64,000 nucleotides of DNA, taken from assembly GCA_004022145.1 (NCBI GenBank), contig RCNU01000001.1, one strand, 5' to 3'. The notes below the pieces were generated by a model. The model saw nothing but the letters and a program-made list of their open reading frames with translations, ran no database searches and was not told where the DNA came from. This DNA comes from Paecilomyces variotii (Eukaryota). Of this stretch, positions 49,699 through 59,714 are shown in pieces (the stretch's first letter is position 1; the number at the start of each line of letters is the position of its first letter). The translations under genes were made by a program, and so were the position numbers.

Positions 49699-50708
49699 TC
49701 AGGAAATCTGCTCATCCCAAGTCCCCAGATTTCGGCAGCTCTCCGTGACCTTTCCTAGATCCTCCAGCAATTGACCAACAGTCTCGTCATTTGGAGAACT
49801 AGTAGTCTCACTGCATTCTACGAAGAAAACGTAGTGCCATGGCTTGCTCCGGCTTGGTCGGGTGTTAATGCTCGTAAGATTTTGACCATGTGTCTTGAAA
49901 ACAAGCAGAGCATCTGCAAGCGCCCCAGGAGAGGAATGATTGACCGTGAATGAGACAAGCGTTTTTCTTTTCGCAGGGGATTGTTCATTTTTCTCCGCGG
50001 ACCCAGCATTAGCCAGACTCGGGGGGTATGAGCTTGCAGTCTGTTCTGATCGAATATTCCTCACTATTAGAAACCTTGTCGTATTGTCATCTTTATCCTC
50101 AATGTTTGCCTCCAGAATATCGGCCCCGTGGTACTCCGCAGCAAAGCTGCTTGCAATCGCCGCACTTTGACCGGTCTCATCCCGTGCAGCAATCTCGGCG
50201 GCTTTTGACGTCGAAGACACATCTTGCTTCTCCACCCCCTTGAAGTGCTCGGAGAGAAACTTCTCACACTGGCCCCAGGCCTGGGGGTGCGTATATAGTT
50301 TATTTATGAAATCATAACTGCCAGATGCGGAGGGTGCGGTGCCTTTTCGAGCCAGAAGACAGTGATGCACGGTAAGATAGTACTCGCCGCAGATCTCAAT
50401 ATCACTATATACCCGGTCGCGGTCAGCTAAGAGGTCCAGGGTCTGGACAACTGAGCCATTCGTCGAATTCTCAAAGGGGATCGCGGCGTAATCAGCGTCG
50501 TTCTGTTGGACCGCGGAGAAGATATCGGCAAATGTTGGGCAGGGGGTCAATTCAGCTGAGCGACCAAAACATTCAAGTGCGGCCTGTAATGAGACGAGGA
50601 GTTAGCACTACGGGTTATATATTGTCTTTGTTGAGCAGGGCATAAATTTCTTACCTGATGAGAGAAGGATGCCGCGGGGCCCAGGAACGCAACCCGGAGT
50701 CGCTGCAT
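49699..50708 (-). CDS. PHA2: Prephenate dehydratase (2 exons)
   Basis: RVAFLGPAASFSHQAA, PFENSTNGSV, THPQAWGQC, SSTSKAA, NTTRFL, PGALADAL..F, NLTSINTRP. Confidence 0.95.
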
Positions 50709-51007
50709 GGCTCCTAGGAAATGCTGACGGTTGTGTGATATGGGTATTATGAAAGTGAGAAGGAGTAATGATTATAAACATCCATCCCCGAAGCAAAATA
50801 ACCCGAGACTCTGCAAGTATTATTGCTGTCGCTAGGACACGCCCTTCCAACTGATCCCCGCGACATCGGAGAACTTCGCATTGTCCGGCAGAACAAACAA
50901 GGCAAACCGTGGATATCTCCGCAGTTTATTCCGCGACATCTACTCTATATCTTAAAAGCCGAAAACTCCCAATCATTGGTACTCATGGCGCTTGGGAGTC
51001 TATCAAT

Positions 51008-52179
51008 ATGAGTTTCGCAGCAAGAGGCAATGGTCCGTTGCGTCGCTGGGTATCTTTAAGTGGAAGGGCACCCCGATCTGTTCGCCCTTCCTCTTCCCTA
51101 TCAGAGCGCTTTCACCAAGAGTTAACGACGCGCCGGTTGCCTCTTATTTATGACTATTTATCCCCTCAACCTTCTCATCTTCTGAACTTATCTCTTGTCG
51201 GATATGTTCCTGAACTGGCTCCCGAGACGTCCCTTGGTGATGCTGGCGGGATTCTCCCACTGATCAGCTCCCCCTCCCGTATGGCTGTCGGTCATCACTT
51301 GGTGTATTTTCCGCCCCAGGTGACATTGTCGCAGCTCCTACCGGACGGAACAGATGTTTTACATACACCCGGAGAGCCATTTAATAGGCGGATGTGGGCC
51401 GGAGGTCGAGTAAGGTTCCCTCAACAAGGAGGTCCACTACTCGACGGCAGACGCGCAGTCTGTATTGAAGGTATTCGAGATGTCAAGGTTAAAGGACTGG
51501 ACGGGCAAGAGAAGATCTTTGTCGGTATCGAGAGACGGGTCGCCACAGTAGGAGAACAAGAGACCGAAGAGAAAATCAGAAGCCGGGTCTGGCAAGCCAG
51601 CGAAGAGGACTTCGGAGACGCAGAGATCATTGAGAGACGAGACCTAGTCTTTTTGCGAGAGAAAACACCGGAACAATTACAGAACGATAAGGCTTCTTTC
51701 TCCAAGGGTGGTAGGATCGTAAAGCGTGCGCAGAGCCAATTCACATTTGTTGTTTGTTCAAATTGATGATAACTGACATTTCTTTCTTCAAAAAAGCGCC
51801 TTCAGATCCTGAACTCAGCTTTAAGCTCAGACCAAACAAGGCGTTGCTGTTTCGCTACTCAGCTCTTACATTCAATGCTCATTCTATTCATCTCGACAAG
51901 TCCTACGCTCAGGATGTTGAGGGATATCGCAATCTACTCGTCCACGGACCATTGTCACTAACTTTACTTCTCACTGTTCTTCGATGCCATTTATACAAGC
52001 TGGGGCGTGTGATCAGGGATATTGAATATAGAAACCTTGCCCCTCTCTATGTATGTGAGGAGATGACTATTTGTGCGAAGCCTAAGCGTGGCCTCGACAC
52101 GAACCAGTGGGAGGTATGGATTGCAGGTGAGGATGGGGGACTCACCGTCAGAGGAACCGTCCGCACAAGTGAACTATAG
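51008..52179 (+). CDS. HTD2: Mitochondrial hot-dog fold dehydratase, Htd2-like (2 exons)
   Basis: Arg/Ser-rich presequence-like N-terminus; LLPDGTD, RRMWAGG, LLFRYSALTFNAHSIHLD..YA, LVHGPL. Confidence 0.8.
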
Positions 52180-52745
52180 AAGCATACATTTAGAATTTCA
52201 CAAGTGCAGCCTGAGAATATTATCGCAGCTCGACTCTTCAAAATGCTACGATACTCCCATGGTGTTGTATACAGAAGCAATAAACACACCTTTCCATTCG
52301 AGTTCCCCTGACTCCAATAAATCAGAGTGATACTATATATTATGGATATTTATTTCTTTCCTCTTCGTACTTCCGCTAGTTACATATACCTGGAGTTTCA
52401 TTGCGAAACTCTTCTCCTTTATCTTTTTTCGCTTCTGTATTGATTACTTAATCGAGGCCCGCACCGAACTTGGTAGAAAGCTGGTGTTGCCTAAAATTGC
52501 ACCTGGAAACCTCCGGATAAACGACGCACCGGGTAATTTGTGGATTAGCGGCTCGCATCTTTTTAAGCTTCAAAAAGAACACAGTTCACTTCTTCCTCTT
52601 CTCTTCTCTTTACGCTCTGCTGCCATTCTCGACAGAGCATCCAACACGCCTCGTAACTGCAGGCGATAGAGGGTCTGTGACAGTGATATCACGGCAGTGT
52701 GTCGCAAGCCCAGAGGGTTAAGGTCGCCCTTTATTTATCCTAGAC

Positions 52746-54112
52746 ATGGACATATTCTGGGCGGCACCTCCTATCTCAAGGTAACATTTCCCTCAACTTT
52801 CCAGTGGATATCCGATCAATGGTCTAATTCTATGTTTTAAACAGGACCATTACAGCACTTACATTCGTGCAGTCTGCTCTGTTCTACGGAGGATTGCTCA
52901 GTGGATATCACTTAGTGTTTCTCCCATGGAATCTTCTCAAACTCCCTCCGCAAATATGGAGACTTGCCACTCCTTTTTTCCTCACAGGGCCGAACATCGG
53001 GTTTCTCTACGACCTCTATTTCAGTATGCGCTTATGATGTTCCAGGCGGAGCGCAACGCTAACCGATACCCAGTGTATACCTATAGCAGCGCTTTAGAGA
53101 ATGATTCTCCCCTCTTCAGCATGCCCGGGGACTACTTCATTTATGTTATTTTTGTAGGCACTGTCATAGTGGTAAGTCATGAGGCTGCTGGATCCAATCT
53201 ACCGCAACTTGAACATGGTCGCTCCATAGAACATGTCCTTGCGCATATCACCCTTGCCTTACTCTTTTATTTGTCACCTCGCATTATCTGCCCGCCCAGC
53301 CTGTTCCTAGCTGCAGCGGTTCCTGGAAACGAGGGAGATTACCCCTGCACCTTGTACAGTCCCTCATTCGCAAAAAAATCCTTAAGGGGCTGTATCGGGT
53401 GTGGGAATGGTGGGATGGCCTATGAGATAGCCGTCGTAAACTATCCGTTTTACGTGCGGTGGTTATGGTGCCCTACATTTATTTCACATACACCAAATCT
53501 ATATTCTTTTCCTAAATATCACTCGTCTTATGCATTCTTAAGTCCTGGGATTTTCCGCGTGGCCCAGCCACAGTATCAGCATTTACTGACATTCCGGAAG
53601 CTCACCGCAGGTTTTCTCTTGGGGGGCTTCGTCTTCACTGGTGGTGAGTGATGTGTTGCGGTAAAGCTGTGTAATGATAATATCCCAAGCTGACCCATGT
53701 AGCACTGATCCTTGCGTTTGCCTATACCTATGCCCAGGAGAACCGGGGTAAGAAGGTGAGGTTCTTTATAATCAATATTCCTGTGGTGTTCCTGCCATGG
53801 GCTATACTCGCCCTCACTCTCGTAACGAAAGGAGGGCATGCAACAGCAGTGGACGGTACCGGTATTCTCGCGGCTCATCTCTATCAATTCCTGGTCCGCA
53901 TCTATCCGGAGTTTGGGGGTGGCAGAAAATTTATCACCACACCTGGTTTTGTCCAGAGATGGTTTGGCGGCAACCGACAGGCCTACCGTACCTATGGAAC
54001 GGCATATAGGCCCCCGCGGCAGCCCTCGCAGGCATCGTCTGGCGGATGGAGTTCGTCCTTCACAGACTCCTGGAGCGCTCGGGGTGCCGGTAGGAGACTG
54101 GGCGGTGATTAG
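52746..54112 (+). CDS. Derlin (Der1/Dfm1-like ERAD rhomboid pseudoprotease), 5 exons
   Basis: MDIFWAAPPISRT, PQIWRLAT (WR motif), YTYSSALE, FLPWAIL, GILAAHLYQFL, C-terminal SHP-like box (W..RGAGRRLGG). Confidence 0.88.
53241..53480 (+). ncRNA. Candidate structured ncRNA inside derlin intron 3
   Basis: Several nested complementary helices with G-U pairs, a GAAA tetraloop and a 3' ACA+3 nt; intron is 429 nt versus about 50-100 nt typical here. Family not identified. Confidence 0.45.
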
Positions 54113-54675
54113 GGTAGGTTTACCAAATACTCCGTCGGTAGGCGTGCATCCATTAGTCGAATATGAGAACCCTATGTACGAGAACAAGAAGCTTGCAATG
54201 TCGCATCAGTTATTCATAGTGAGCGATAATATAATATTAGATTTCTATCGACTATATCTGCAGCGTAGGCCGCCATTTTGCGTTAGATGCGACCACAGTA
54301 GCGTAGAGAATCGGCTGGCATTCTCACTTGTTTACAGCCCGCCCTCTTTTCTTGCTCCTGAGTCCTGACAAGCGATACAAAAAATTACTTTCTAACAGCG
54401 CAAGAAAACTTTAACCGGCGTGGACCATCCAGAATTCCAGACTGACATTGATTGAAGCGTCGGTGGCAGACTGGCCGCTTGAGACTCCGGCGCTAACCCG
54501 ATTTGTCGCTGGAGCTGTTGCCGCACTTCAAAATTTCCTTTACCAAGATCGACAAACTCTTTCCTCGCGACTCAAAGAGCAGCGGTACGCCTTTTCATCC
54601 AGAAGCACCCTCGCTCACCCTCTTCGACTTGCCTTTCAACGGCTCGATTGCAATTTCCTGCACAGGCCGTCCAAA

Positions 54676-56412
54676 ATGGCAGCCGCGGAAAATGGCGATT
54701 TCGCCATCAAGCCTGAGGCGGTGACACCCAACATTCCCACCTCAGAGTGGCCGCTTCTGCTGAAGAATTATGACAAGCGTGAGTATATCTATCATCATGT
54801 TCGGTGCATGGGGTTATCTCTGTGAATGGCAGAGGCTGACTGTTCGGTTTTGCTGCAGTGCTCGTTAGAACCGGTCACTTCACACCAATCCCTGCTGGAT
54901 GCACTCCTTACAAGCGTGACTTGAAGTCTTATATCAGTTCCGGTGTGATCAACCTTGACAAGCCGGCGAACCCCTCCAGTCATGAAGTCGTCGCATGGAT
55001 GAAGCGAATTCTGAGGTAAGATTATAACCAATCAAATGGGAGAGAGCGTTGGACCCTGTGCTAAATTTTCCTCTTCTTTTTTTTTACAGAGTCGAGAAGA
55101 CCGGTCACAGCGGCACTCTGGACCCGAAGGTTACTGGGTGCTTGATCGTCTGTATCGATCGTGCTACTCGTCTCGTGAAGTCGCAGCAGGGTGCTGGTAA
55201 GGAGTACGTTTGCGTTATTCGTCTCCATGACAAGCTTCCCGGCGGTGAGGCGCAATTCGCGCGTGCTCTGGAGACCTTGACTGGTGCTCTCTTCCAGAGA
55301 CCGCCGTTGATCTCCGCCGTCAAGCGTCAACTCCGTATCAGAACTATTCACGAGAGCAAGCTCTACGAGTTTGACAATGACCGACACCTGGGTGTCTTCT
55401 GGGTTAGCTGCGAGGCAGGCACCTATATCCGAACTCTCTGTGTTCACCTGGGTCTGCTCTTGGGTGTTGGTGCCCACATGCAGGAGCTTAGACGTGTGCG
55501 CAGTGGAGCTATGGACGAGCAGGATGGAATGGTTACTCTTCACGATGTTCTGGACGCCCAGTGGTTGATGGACAACCAGCGCGACGAGTCGTACTTGAGA
55601 AAGGTTATCCGCCCGTTGGAGACTCTGCTCACTACGTACAAGCGTATCGTTGTCAAGGACAGTGCCGTCAATGCTGTGTGCTACGGTGCCAAGCTTATGA
55701 TTCCCGGTCTCCTGCGATTTGGTGGGTTTCCTGCATCACAAGGCAGTGTACGAATTTAGCTGACTTTTTTCACAGAGGCTGGTATCGAAGTTGGCGAGGA
55801 GGTCGTTCTTATGACCACCAAGGGTGAGGCTATTGCCCTTGGTATTGCTCAGATGTCTACTGTCGAGCTTTCTACATGCGACCACGGTGTCGTGGCGAAG
55901 GTCAAGCGTTGCATTATGGAGCGTGACTTGTACCCCCGCAGATGGGGTATGGGTCCTGTTGCTCTGGAGAAGAAGAAGCTGAAGTCGGATGGAAAGTTGG
56001 ACGTATGTTAACCCTGGGTATCCAGCGCCGTTTCACCGTGAGTGTACTGACTTCGATGCAGAAATACGGCCGTCCCAACGAGGCCACCCCCGCCAAGTGG
56101 AACAATGAGTACAAGGACTACAACGCTCCCCTGGGAACCACCGAGCAGCCCGCTACCGAGACGACTTCCAAGGAAGATGTCCTATCTGCTCCCCCAGTGC
56201 CGCCAACCGGTGATACCAACGGTGTCCCATCATCCCCAGCTGGCAAGATGGATGTTGATGAGGACAATGACGAGAAGAAGAAGCGGAAGAGACATGAAGG
56301 CGAGACTCCAGAGGAGCGCGCTGAGCGTAAGCGCAAGAAGAAGGAGAAGAAGGAAAAGAAGGAGAGGAGAAAGTCGAAGCAGAAGGAGGACGACAGTGAG
56401 GACAGCGATTAA
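54676..56412 (+). CDS. CBF5: H/ACA pseudouridine synthase Cbf5/dyskerin (multi-exon)
   Basis: [48 protein letters not shown] domain, KKE-rich tail. Confidence 0.97.
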
Positions 56413-56996
56413 ATGCCCCTCAGAGAAGGCGCCCCTCTTGCTCTGTGATGCGCCATTGCTGGACGGGGCTCTTCTACTACCGTGCTCTTTCGGGCGTGTC
56501 GGTCATCTATTGGGACGTGTTCCTGTAACATATGCTGTTTCTTCTTGGGCGGAGTCTCGGAATCATTTTCTTACGTTTGCTCGATCTGGTCAAAAATCTG
56601 TTTCTTCTTTTTTCAGCAAGGACTCAATGGGAAAAAGTGTGTGCAAGAAAACAGTGAAGCTAATTCTGTTAATTGAAATTCCTTCCCAAATGAGCCCATA
56701 CTATTATCCTTTATCTACTTGTAATTCTTGTTGTAGGTTTTGTAGTTGGAGCGACGAGTGAATATGCTGGTGTCATGCTGTGTTGGCGGCGTGCGTGGCC
56801 AGTAGTAGTGATGTAGACTAGAGGACTTACCATACTTATCCCGGGATCTCCACATGCGACCACGCTTATCCCCGGAACTCCCCTCCTCCAACTGCTGCCC
56901 GCTAACAAACTGGCAGTGATCCTTTCAATCTAACATCGGACGACACAGGCATACCAGAATTTACTCCTCTGTGAAGGAGGATCACGTTCCTTCAAT

Positions 56997-58407
56997 ATGG
57001 CTGCAGAGGTCACATCTACAAAACTGAACGCAGAGAGCCATCTCCTTCTGGTACTTCGCCACCAGTTGCTTTCCCCGACTTATTGCATGATCGTCTTTCT
57101 CTAACCTCATACAGGACCAACCCCTACTTCGCCTTCCCCATGAGTTGGCACGCCGAAATTTCAAGTCTGCTCAGCGAGTAATCGAACGTGAGAAGGAATA
57201 TGTACTCCCAGCGCTCAAAGAGGCAGCAAATGCTTCTCTATCCGGAAGCCATGGCCCAGACCAGACCCTCGCCTCCCTCGACGCTATGATATCCCGCATG
57301 CAAGGTCTGAAACGGAAGATGGAGTCCCTACAGGAGGATGAGAAGAAGATCCATATGCAGTCGCGGAAGCGGATACAGCACCTGGAAGATCTTTACAAGA
57401 TCCCCAGTCTCGCTGACGTGAAATATGACGAGTGGTCGCGGGTGCGGCTGGACAGGCTGTTGGTGGATCATATGCTACGTTCGGGGTACACGGAGAGTGC
57501 GAAACAGTTAGCAAAGGAGAAGGGTATCGAAGAACTGGTCGATCTGGGCGTCTTCGTCCAATGTCAGCGCATTGCGGAGAGCTTGCGGAAGGGAGAGGTT
57601 AAGGAAGCGCTCCAGTGGTGTGCGGAGAACAAGGCAGCTTTGAAGAAGAATCAGGTACGTTATGATACGTGTAACCGAAGTGATACAGTCAAAACCGAAC
57701 GATAGAAACTGACTTGCCGTGTAGCATAATCTAGAGTTCGAGCTGAGACTGCAGCAATACATCGAGATCGTGAGGACAGGCCGAAAGGAGAGGTTCCTCG
57801 AAGCCATGCAGCATGCACGAAAGTATCTCGCCCCTCATATCGATACCCAATCCAAACAGATACATCAAGCAGCCGGTCTTCTCGCATTTTCTTCGGGTAC
57901 CAATGCAGAACCCTACAAGGTACGTTTTGTCTCTAGACAGAGGGTTTGCTTAGCATGATCCTAACCGTCTTCTAGTCGATGTACTCGCCAAATAGATGGA
58001 CATATCTCTCAGATCTGTTTATTCGCACCCACCATGAGCTGCTATCGCTACCATCCCGGCCACTTCTCCATATTGCCCTGTCGGCCGGTCTGTCAGCCCT
58101 GAAAACGCCTTCGTGTCACTCTGCATACACCTCTTCGAGTTCCAACGCCCGCTCTACCTCCACTTGTGTATGTCCGATCTGTTCGACAGAGCTCAACGAG
58201 CTTGCACGTAACATGCCATATGCCCATCATACAAAGAGCTACGTCGAGAATGACCCCGTCGTCTTGCCTAACGGCCGGATCTACGGACGGGATCGGTTGA
58301 TGGAGATGAGTCGAAAAGTTAGCTCCGTTGAGGAAGGAAAGGTCAAAGATCCGGTAACTGGGGAAGTATTCGACGAGACAGATCTGAAGAAGGTGTACAT
58401 CACTTGA
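56997..58407 (+). CDS. FYV10: GID/CTLH E3 ligase subunit Fyv10/Gid9 (MAEA)
   Basis: LDQPLLRLPHEL, LisH (RLDRLLVDHMLRSGY), CTLH (EALQWC..NK), LEFELRLQQYIE, AGLSALKTPSC, CPICS, LPNGRIYG. Confidence 0.92.
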
Positions 58408-58511: not shown

Positions 58512-59714
58512 CTAAGGACTCTCACTGTCAGAATCGTCTCTGGCCCTCTTCTTCCCACCTGTTTTCCCTTTCTGAACCGACGACTTAGCCGGCTTACTAT
58601 TCTCATTCCCTTTTATCTCGAACACGTACGTCCTTGCCTCTCTTTCCTCCCCTCTCCACCCTCCTCTTCCACCATCGCGGCCCTCGATATGTCCCAGCGT
58701 CCGCGCATGAGAGTAACCAGGATAGGCAGCCCATGGGAACTTGAAGCTCGTAACAACCCGTAGACCGGCATGTCGTGCCAAGTCCCTTATATTCCAAAGG
58801 GTATATGGCTCACCTTCGAACAGTGTGACCACTATCTGGCCCGGTGCTGTCATCTTCGTTTTCCAACGATCCAACTTCGCAGGGACTTTGGCTCTATCAG
58901 ACCCATCCATCTCATCGTTGTCATCATCATCACTATACTCCGACCCGAAATCCTCATCAGAATCCACATCCCCCTCAACATCCATCGGCGTAGAAAGCAA
59001 CGGCAAACAACTCTTGAAGAACGCCACAAGAAGCTCCTGATTCGCACGCACTTGCCGATTCACGTCCGTCGAAAGACCACCAACATGCGGGAAATTAAAG
59101 CATATAACATCCCACGGCCCACCAGTCGTCTGATGGGAATTGCTATCAACGCCGCGTTTAGCGTTCTCCCACGCTACGCGCTGCGGATAGCGTCGTGGAA
59201 AACCAGCGCGGACGAGTTTCCCACCACCGACTGCAGAGCCGAGTTTTCGAGCGTCAACTGAATATAGGACTTTTGGTCCTCGTTTGTCGTGGTGGGTTTG
59301 GGGGTTGTCATTGTTGTCCTTGGGGGGTTGTTTAGTCTCTTCTTCGTCTTCGTCATCATCTTCATTTTCATCGTTGCTCTTTCCAACGGTTTCCTCGAAG
59401 GGGGATTTCTCCCCCCCGGCAGAATCCTCTACTTTCTTCCCTGAAAAAGTAGAAAGGAAGTCCTTGATAGTTTCCTCGACATGGGGATATTTGGAAGATA
59501 GCGTCTCTTTGGAATCATAGCATGTGGCCAGGATGTCCCTACATCGATAATGTAGAGCTAGGGAACGCGCGAATGAGAAGTCTCCTATGTGCATTGTCAG
59601 TGATTTTTATTCTCTCTTTTTTTTTGATAATTCCATCAATGAGCAAAAAAATAATAATAAACAATTGATTTGTAAAAATATAATTAATAAAAAAAACATA
59701 GCAACATCATGCAA

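Follow-up and report, generated by a model that had tools for sequence, protein, structure and literature searches.

Intron 3 of a derlin (Der1-like) gene in the fungus Paecilomyces variotii very probably contains a conserved structured RNA or RNA element. Our preferred reading, held with moderate confidence, is that this intron hosts a trans-acting small nucleolar RNA (snoRNA) of the H/ACA class, ~210 nucleotides (nt) in length, located at ~53270–53480 on the + strand and having an extra central hairpin. The gene lies in the window, that is, the whole 64,000-nt stretch of contig RCNU01000001.1 (assembly GCA_004022145.1) that was analyzed, and positions are counted from its first nucleotide. 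We favor an H/ACA RNA because nucleotides within this one intron are conserved across fungal classes, with a guide-like peak on loop strands; because an ANANNA box and an ACA box occur with suitable spacing; and because one hairpin covaries and the element is on the sense strand. A first-pass annotation of the window had proposed an intron-encoded noncoding RNA, possibly H/ACA, in the form of a single multi-branched structure at 53241–53480. The core of that proposal stands, as the boxed region is the nucleotide-conserved block, while its architecture does not.

Nucleotide conservation of intron 3

The features on which the comparison rests are as follows.

53074–53171, + strand: derlin exon 3 (exon model; RNA-contig joints 53023/53074 and 53171/53601)
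53172–53600, + strand: derlin intron 3 (GTAAGT donor; 429 nt, a multiple of three; stop-free in the exon frame; GT..AG joint in RNA contig X13)
53601–53643, + strand: derlin exon 4 (exon model and RNA contigs)
53270–53480, + strand: conserved RNA element (predicted snoRNA body with approximate ends; conservation profile and blocks read in three frames)

Read-through of open introns is common among gene callers, and the translation running across exon 3, intron 3, and exon 4 (189 amino acids) was therefore used as a probe. A word-indexed protein search with this probe returned the same locus only (P0001, 99% identity). An exhaustive HMMER search returned 99 cluster representatives at E up to 1e-3, with 29 at ≤1e-10; most of these matches span exon 3 and the first 80–110 intron codons, and some cover the intron part only. 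Comparison of the 171 fetched proteins with 53001–53720 by tblastn gave matches for 169 besides P0001 and P0002, the latter being the spliced derlin product. Conserved blocks were found in about 98 of the 169, which are open reading frames (ORFs) and gene models reading from derlin exon 3 into intron 3, and the intron conservation that the first-pass annotation had named as a check is thereby borne out. Most of the relatives' ORFs terminate inside intron 3. An insertion placed exactly at the exon 3/4 junction is present in six of 72 derlin gene models, and the blocks occur in five of the six (Aspergillus felis, Fonsecaea pedrosoi, Penicillium nalgiovense, Penicillium pancosmium, and P0066).

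The same blocks are read in different frames. In P0066, exon 3 is in frame 0, 53263–53373 in frame 1, and 53375–53452 in frame 2. P0141 passes from frame 0 to frame 2 (8e-15), P0024 is in frame 1 (3e-10), and P0046 uses all three frames. Block B (53311–53351) is in frame 0, 1, or 2 in 89, 5, and 4 sequences, respectively. In the 89 ORFs having block B as xVPG, block A (53283–53301), which lies ~20 nt upstream, is in frame 0 in 45, frame 2 in 27, and frame 1 in 6, and is unrecognized in 11; these proportions are biased toward frame 0, as the probe itself is in frame 0. Because the blocks are read in three frames across species, what is conserved is the nucleotide sequence and not a protein.

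Little conservation is seen between the 5' splice site and about 53260, followed by a rise from about 53262–53286 into block A. Within block B, identity reaches 83.7 and 82.5 of 95 at 53316–27, as compared to 80.5 of 152 for the last codons of exon 3. A dip at 53352–57 is followed by a conserved segment at 53364–73, which is the 5' part of the hairpin 2 loop described below, and by short conserved runs, GAGA.AGC at 53424–31 and GGNGGN at 53458–63. Identity is 12.0 of 16.7 at 53472–77 and then collapses to 2.2 of 12.3 at 53484–89. The conserved stretch, ~53270–53480, thus coincides with the 53241–53480 region boxed earlier.

Named carriers of the blocks belong to Aspergillus, Penicillium, Fonsecaea, and Scytalidium. 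The exon parts of other carriers are nearest those of Teratosphaeria/Vermiconidia (70–72%), Zopfia/Melanomma (53–67%), Acarospora (86%), and Thermoascus (86%). With these genera placed in their classes, the matches point to an element that spans Eurotiomycetes, Leotiomycetes, Dothideomycetes, and Lecanoromycetes. A search of metagenome contigs with an exon 5 protein probe gave one spurious non-derlin locus and no relative. A two-block DNA pattern gave one unrelated contig among viral contigs, and among the matches listed for genome contigs, a Streptomyces gene dominated.

Three predicted hairpins with candidate H and ACA boxes

Single-sequence folds of the element give three consecutive hairpins instead of the single 240-nt multi-branched hairpin first proposed, and the first and third of these occupy canonical H/ACA positions.

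53277–53334, + strand: hairpin 1 (centroid and minimum free energy (MFE) folds; pairing kept in relatives)
53282–53291, + strand: 5' strand of the hairpin 1 internal loop (candidate guide; within conserved block A)
53320–53329, + strand: 3' strand of the hairpin 1 internal loop (candidate guide; 53320–27 is the best conserved part of the intron, 53328–29 vary)
53336–53341, + strand: H-type box AGAUUA (ANANNA), 16 nt after the base of the hairpin 1 upper stem
53344–53405, + strand: hairpin 2 (base 53344–52/53397–405; middle stem 53354–64/53385–95; loop 53365–84, with its 5' part conserved)
53397–53418, + strand: block D (3' arm of the hairpin 2 base and a G-rich linker; read as GxGMVG, CGNGG/CRHGG, and VWxWWD in different ORFs)
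53418–53471, + strand: hairpin 3 (single-sequence fold; conserved GAGA.AGC and GGNGGN)
53475–53477, + strand: ACA box, 14 nt after the hairpin 3 upper stem, which ends at 53460 (compatible in 13 of 13 covering relatives)

Hairpin 1 consists of a lower stem (53277–81/53330–34), a symmetric internal loop of 10+10 nt, and an upper stem (53292–95/53316–19 and 53297–53300/53310–13). Stem positions of hairpin 1 are complementary in relatives (27/28, 21/23, and 21/25, proceeding inward from the lower stem), and loop positions are unpaired, with pairing possible in only 1/26, 1/24, and 3/28 cases. The maxima of conservation in the intron fall on both strands of this internal loop and the adjoining stem. 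Judged from sequence, this is the conservation profile that would be expected of a guide RNA.

In 80 of 89 relatives, the sequence at the H box is consistent with ANANNA; the other nine are incompatible with it. The distances from upper stem to box, 16 nt for hairpin 1 to the H box and 14 nt for hairpin 3 to the ACA box, agree with the 14 to 16 nt described between a target uridine and the H or ACA box downstream of it (Liu 2009, PMC2780460). ANANNA occurs 11 times and ACA eight times in intron 3, so that the boxes by themselves are weak evidence. The ACA at 53475–77 is the one noticed in the first-pass annotation, and conservation stops there. The ANANNA picked out in that annotation (ATAGAA, 53226) lies in an unconserved part of the intron, and its place is taken by AGAUUA at 53336–41. 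Hairpin 3 has a lower stem (53418–25/53463–71), a small internal loop, and an upper stem (53430–40/53449–60).

Covariation and strand

Covariation was evaluated by anchoring ORFs on the conserved ends of hairpin 2, back-translating them to degenerate DNA, and pairing inward from both anchors. Scoring was restricted to positions fixed by the genetic code, and arms paired within a species were compared to arms paired across species. For the middle stem of hairpin 2, 66 of 105 determined pairs from 45 relatives were complementary within species (0.63), versus 0.49 ± 0.04 across species, and the within-species value was reached in 0 of 1000 permutations. With stricter anchors, the middle stem gave 38/56 versus 0.55 (at 0.029). 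Watson-Crick pairs accounted for 59% within species and 36% across. The signal was gone when the 3' arm was slid by -2, -1, or +1. Base positions k=7–8 of hairpin 2 pair only in P. variotii (1/4 and 2/12 in relatives, with looser anchors), and therefore a small internal loop occurs at this place in relatives. An alternative closing stem (53347–51/53471–67) showed no covariation signal.

In these back-translated sequences, covariation was seen for the middle stem of hairpin 2, and was not seen for hairpin 3 or for two of the helices listed in the first-pass annotation. The helix 53312–20/53341–49 is contradicted, as its pair 53314–53347 is broken in 57 of 79 determined cases among relatives. 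The helix 53302–09/53402–09 is unsupported, with 42 breaks, 13 compensated changes, and 40 unchanged cases. For these two helices, the count was made by column on window coordinates and was mostly ambiguous.

The preference of G-U pairs for the sense strand, which had been claimed from the sequence of P. variotii, holds in relatives. The base stem of hairpin 2 has 31 G-U versus 0 A-C oppositions, and the middle stem 10 versus 4. Hairpin 2 has a folding energy of -30.2 kcal/mol on the + strand and -19.6 kcal/mol on the - strand. These values fit an RNA of the + strand.

Folding energy

All of the motifs listed in the first-pass annotation are present in the sequence at the coordinates given for them. 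The multi-branched fold built from them is not special in energy: 53241–53480 (+ strand) has an MFE of -77.7 kcal/mol (z -1.75), with 12 of 200 shuffled sequences as good. The - strand of this region has a z of -0.23, and the whole of intron 3 a z of -0.04. The outer helix 53241–52/53458–71 is absent from the MFE fold in that register, and the supposed GNRA hairpin, on direct reading of the sequence, lacks a proper closing stem. In sliding 80-nt windows, 53332–53411 alone stood out (z -2.85). The 11-bp helix in this segment (53354–64/53385–95) is real and grows to a 21-bp hairpin, hairpin 2 (z -5.8; 0 of 200 shuffles as good). Only two of 31,970 62-nt windows scanned across the 64 kb were as low in energy as hairpin 2, and ~10 other places came within 2–3 kcal/mol of it. 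On thermodynamics alone, the finding is weak.

Other 62-nt windows that fold about as strongly (-29.5 to -31.8 kcal/mol) are located at 53963–54028 (- strand), 25239, 42421, and 8685. The first of these is antisense to derlin exon 5.

No Rfam 15 family was found at gathering score in the 64-kb window, and with E allowed up to 10, nothing relevant was matched on 50000–57000 or on 53235–53490 (256 nt). Other structures and signals were considered for the intron and rejected. A 'zipper' drawing the splice sites together did no better than shuffled sequences, as folding did not shorten the distance between the 5' splice site and the branch point (28 versus 19.6 ± 11.6 in shuffles). A nested intron would have one donor-like and one branch-like motif only. 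An Ire1-type cleavage loop was entertained at CUGCAGC (53311–17), which resembles the Ire1 consensus; the motif lies within a stem that has a variable bulge in relatives. For a box C/D snoRNA, TGATG is absent from intron 3, and the single CTGA is the branch point.

Splicing and retention of intron 3

Contigs from four public runs were compared to 52900–53900; as contigs, they report neither levels nor RNA ends. The X13 contig joins 53171 to 53601, skipping 429 nt bounded by GT..AG, and also has introns 2 and 4 spliced. In the X5 contig (1144 nt), exon 3, the entire intron 3, and exon 4 are continuous, and intron 4 is removed. The X14 contig has intron 2 spliced and extends 87 nt into intron 3, and X1 is a 17-kb colinear contig that looks like DNA. 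The parts of the intron left uncovered by X14 and X13 are evidence neither way. Intron 3 is thus a genuine intron, and two studies contain RNA in which it is unspliced.

Intron 3 is exactly 143 codons in length and stop-free in the frame of the exon, as were 45 of 20,000 dinucleotide shuffles in that frame. A retained transcript would avoid a premature stop and encode derlin with 143 additional residues. Fungal introns are described as being under selection for early stop codons (PMC4991832). The open frame in P. variotii is probably incidental.

Strain differences within the intron were seen at 53249 (C>T in X1 and X5, and also in X14) and at 53417 (G>C in X1 and X5), the latter changing M to I in frame 0, which is also the case in P0001. 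No stop arises from either difference, and both are outside the scored stems.

The derlin gene and its neighborhood

The host gene is on the + strand, with a Pfam DER1 match in its last exon (E 2.2e-13).

52746–52780, 52845–53023, 53074–53171, 53601–53643, and 53703–54112, + strand: derlin exons (exon model, 254-residue product)
53584–53590, + strand: branch-point motif TACTGAC of intron 3 (sole CTRAC-type motif within the intron)

The translation of the exon model (254 amino acids) is identical to P0002, which its sources name derlin or hypothetical protein of Paecilomyces variotii/Byssochlamys spectabilis. At 429 nt, intron 3 is far longer than the other three introns of the gene (64, 50, and 59 nt), as had been pointed out in the first-pass annotation, and its splice signals are consensus. 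Intron 4 (53644–53695) has a weak match to the archaeal C/D-box RNA sR9 (22.8 bits versus a gathering score of 36; E 0.39). This match is probably due to chance, since its 'D box' is the branch-point motif of intron 4 and its 'C box' overlaps the donor.

Several derlin models of relatives (P0011, P0012, P0029, and P0062) are 441–699 amino acids in length with long N-terminal extensions, and look like fusions with the upstream gene made by automatic annotation.

The next gene downstream is CBF5, as earlier noted, with TruB_N, TruB_C_2, and PUA matches in 55028–55756 (+ strand). An ORF for a BMT5-like ribosomal RNA (rRNA) uridine-N3 methyltransferase occurs at 58515–59606 (- strand), so that two ribosome-modification genes are close to the candidate snoRNA, both within 6 kb of the element. 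'Cbf5' is the source name of the derlins P0004 (Rasamsonia emersonii), P0020 (Aspergillus homomorphus), and P0072 (a Colletotrichum). These database names hint that the adjacency of derlin and CBF5 is widespread and conserved in other fungi.

Discussion

We infer that the element is released in stable form, is bound by proteins, and acts as a guide on a target. In such a model, the derlin pre-mRNA would be spliced, and the lariat debranched and trimmed to the part protected by H/ACA proteins. These proteins (Cbf5, Nhp2, Nop10, and Gar1) would bind the hairpins together with the H and ACA boxes. Each strand of the hairpin 1 internal loop would next base-pair with target sequence flanking a uridine, to be converted to pseudouridine by Cbf5, and the smaller loop of hairpin 3 might guide in a like manner. 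As for a target, neither fungal rRNA nor small nuclear RNA (snRNA) was found by Rfam in the 64-kb window. A primer-type rRNA motif matched 11 viral-contig loci, of which the five scanned with Rfam contained no rRNA, and a second motif matched 0 loci.

A number of observations weigh against an H/ACA snoRNA. The comparative evidence consists of protein translations back-translated to degenerate DNA and not of DNA alignments. The middle hairpin is extra with respect to the H/ACA plan, and hairpin 2 in P. variotii has no pocket. The invariance of the hairpin 1 stems provides no evidence for or against their fold. Hairpin 3 shows no covariation (10 and four relatives, with 17/27 versus 0.62 expected for the 10), and the fold gives it an internal loop of only about 4+2 nt. 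Nine of 89 relatives have lost the final A of the H box. Sliding the 3' arm of hairpin 2 by +2 leaves a weaker signal in place (0.52 versus 0.43, 0.006); bulges may account for this, or it may call for caution. The R. emersonii read-through model P0004 has a 49-codon intron at the same junction without any of the conserved blocks; the element can therefore be lost, and appears to have been lost or moved in this lineage. Finally, derlin, DER1, and DFM1 are not in the main text of Gao 2021 (PMC8216456), nor are Der1 or derlin in Li and Breaker 2017 (PMC5640933), and in the passages searched, neither of these screens for structured RNAs in fungi lists an RNA from a derlin intron.

The constant setting of the element, always in the same intron of the same gene, could mean that it is a cis-acting structure that steers derlin splicing or retention, by protein binding or a fold switch, and is not released. 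Five of the six read-through insertion models carry the element, most ORF matches start in exon 3, and the intron is unspliced in RNA contigs of two studies beside a spliced neighbor. By direct reading, blocks B and D also hold stretches that are complementary to one another and compete with the hairpin 2 base, and structured cis-regulatory introns are among those documented in fungi by Gao 2021 (PMC8216456). We consider this explanation unlikely, as it leaves the sharp end of conservation at the ACA, the ANANNA hinge, and the 16- and 14-nt spacings unexplained. In addition, the splice signals are consensus, the fold brings the 5' splice site no closer to the branch point than in shuffles, and block B is not seen to compensate where block D changes in relatives. 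A stable, trans-acting intronic RNA of some other, undescribed class, with the ANANNA and ACA being incidental, would accommodate the three hairpins as well as the conservation of the hairpin 2 apical loop and of block D with its many G residues, neither of which is needed by the H/ACA plan. It would also agree with the lack of an Rfam family match and of a target in our searches. Such a class seems to us improbable, given that both boxes are conserved, that their positions relative to the stems fit H/ACA spacing, and that positive evidence for any alternative class is absent. We give little credence to a dual-purpose intronic RNA that would tie expression of this endoplasmic reticulum-associated degradation gene to the H/ACA machinery; here, the assembly of Cbf5 and its protein partners on the nascent intron would decide between splicing and retention by way of the extra hairpin and the G-rich block.

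A protein-coding insertion would make intron 3 resemble an exitron (Marquez et al. 2015, per PMC5602073), exitrons being described in that source as retained introns with a length divisible by three that keep the frame. Intron 3 is likewise a multiple of three, has no in-frame stop, and is partly retained, and transcripts that keep it exist. A derlin isoform with 143 extra residues is nevertheless hardly credible. A coding region would not tolerate the shifts by which conserved blocks fall in different frames in different species, and we reject this reading, which these shifts largely refute. Conservation at the protein level is lacking, and no Pfam family is found in the intron translation, whose Atlas recognition score is 1114 (91 in 100 known-family proteins reach 2300). 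G+C content at third codon positions is 0.458, as compared to 0.45–0.63 in ten training ORFs and 0.56 in the derlin coding sequence, and the codon score is -0.05. The early stops in most relatives' ORFs count against coding as well, and the insertion would interrupt a stretch in which nearly all 71 other derlin models align without gaps. Intron 3 has strong splice sites, whereas those of exitrons are described as weak (PMC5602073). No more credible is an ordinary long intron, or the remnant of an introner-like element, with helices formed by chance. Introner-like elements are reported to exceed regular introns in length and to have predicted structure (PMC3609843), and the fold of the whole intron is no better than that of shuffles. 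This reading is already refuted by the conservation data, since conservation is shared between fungal classes and is higher than at the adjoining end of the exon, and hairpin 2 covaries. The position of the intron is also shared across classes, which argues against recent gain; there is no second copy within the 64-kb window, and the sole near-identical match at the protein level is the locus itself.

Among known H/ACA RNAs, those of the snR30/U17 type have an additional hairpin between the box-bearing hairpins. The candidate derlin-intron H/ACA RNA is similar in its extra internal hairpin. The conserved loop motifs of snR30 are presumably absent from hairpin 3, and the hairpin 1 loop that resembles one of them is variable in relatives. 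The derlin-intron RNA also has no Rfam match to snR30/U17, and snR30 has already been assigned to Nc_HACA_12 in Neurospora crassa (Canzler 2018, PMC5824354).

Twenty H/ACA snoRNAs have been described in N. crassa, two of which are intronic: Nc ACA1, and Nc ACA9, an orphan of 201 nt listed with no named host (Liu 2009, PMC2780460). Like the candidate derlin-intron RNA, these are encoded in introns, are about 200 nt in length, and have an ANANNA and a terminal ACA with a loop 14–16 nt upstream. The derlin-intron RNA differs in its third, central hairpin with a conserved loop. It was compared to Nc ACA9 by description only, and identity is neither shown nor excluded by this comparison. According to Canzler 2018 (PMC5824354), two orphan N. 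crassa H/ACA RNAs, not named there, occur in Neurospora only. The closest parallel in mode of discovery is 'H/ACA snoRNA intronic' (#04) of Gao 2021 (PMC8216456), which was also found by comparison, is conserved in Pezizomycotina within a constant host-gene intron, and has a conserved guide in its first hairpin. The host of #04 is described as a 'vacuolar sorting protein' gene, whereas the host here is derlin, and the RNA here is about 210 nt with three hairpins. In Aspergillus fumigatus, C/D snoRNAs were cloned and H/ACA snoRNAs were not, by the account of Jochl 2008 (PMC2377427). A literature search combining snoRNA, intron, Der1, and Aspergillus gave one unrelated abstract book, and a full-text search for a 12-nt core gave unrelated papers only. 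The derlin-intron RNA most likely belongs to the H/ACA class, as a member with an unusual third hairpin that is new or at least absent from the catalogue; the main texts searched gave no description of it, and supplements may hold one.

The element explains the length of the derlin intron and the false derlin insertions that arise from read-through gene calls in several species (P0008, P0024, P0046, P0050, and P0066). If it is confirmed as an H/ACA snoRNA, the incomplete set of H/ACA RNAs from filamentous fungi would gain a small RNA that is widely conserved, with the fungi concerned including food-fermentation, industrial, and pathogenic species. Confirmation would also supply a case of an H/ACA-like RNA in which a third hairpin is conserved, and would imply a conserved target site to be sought in rRNA or snRNA.

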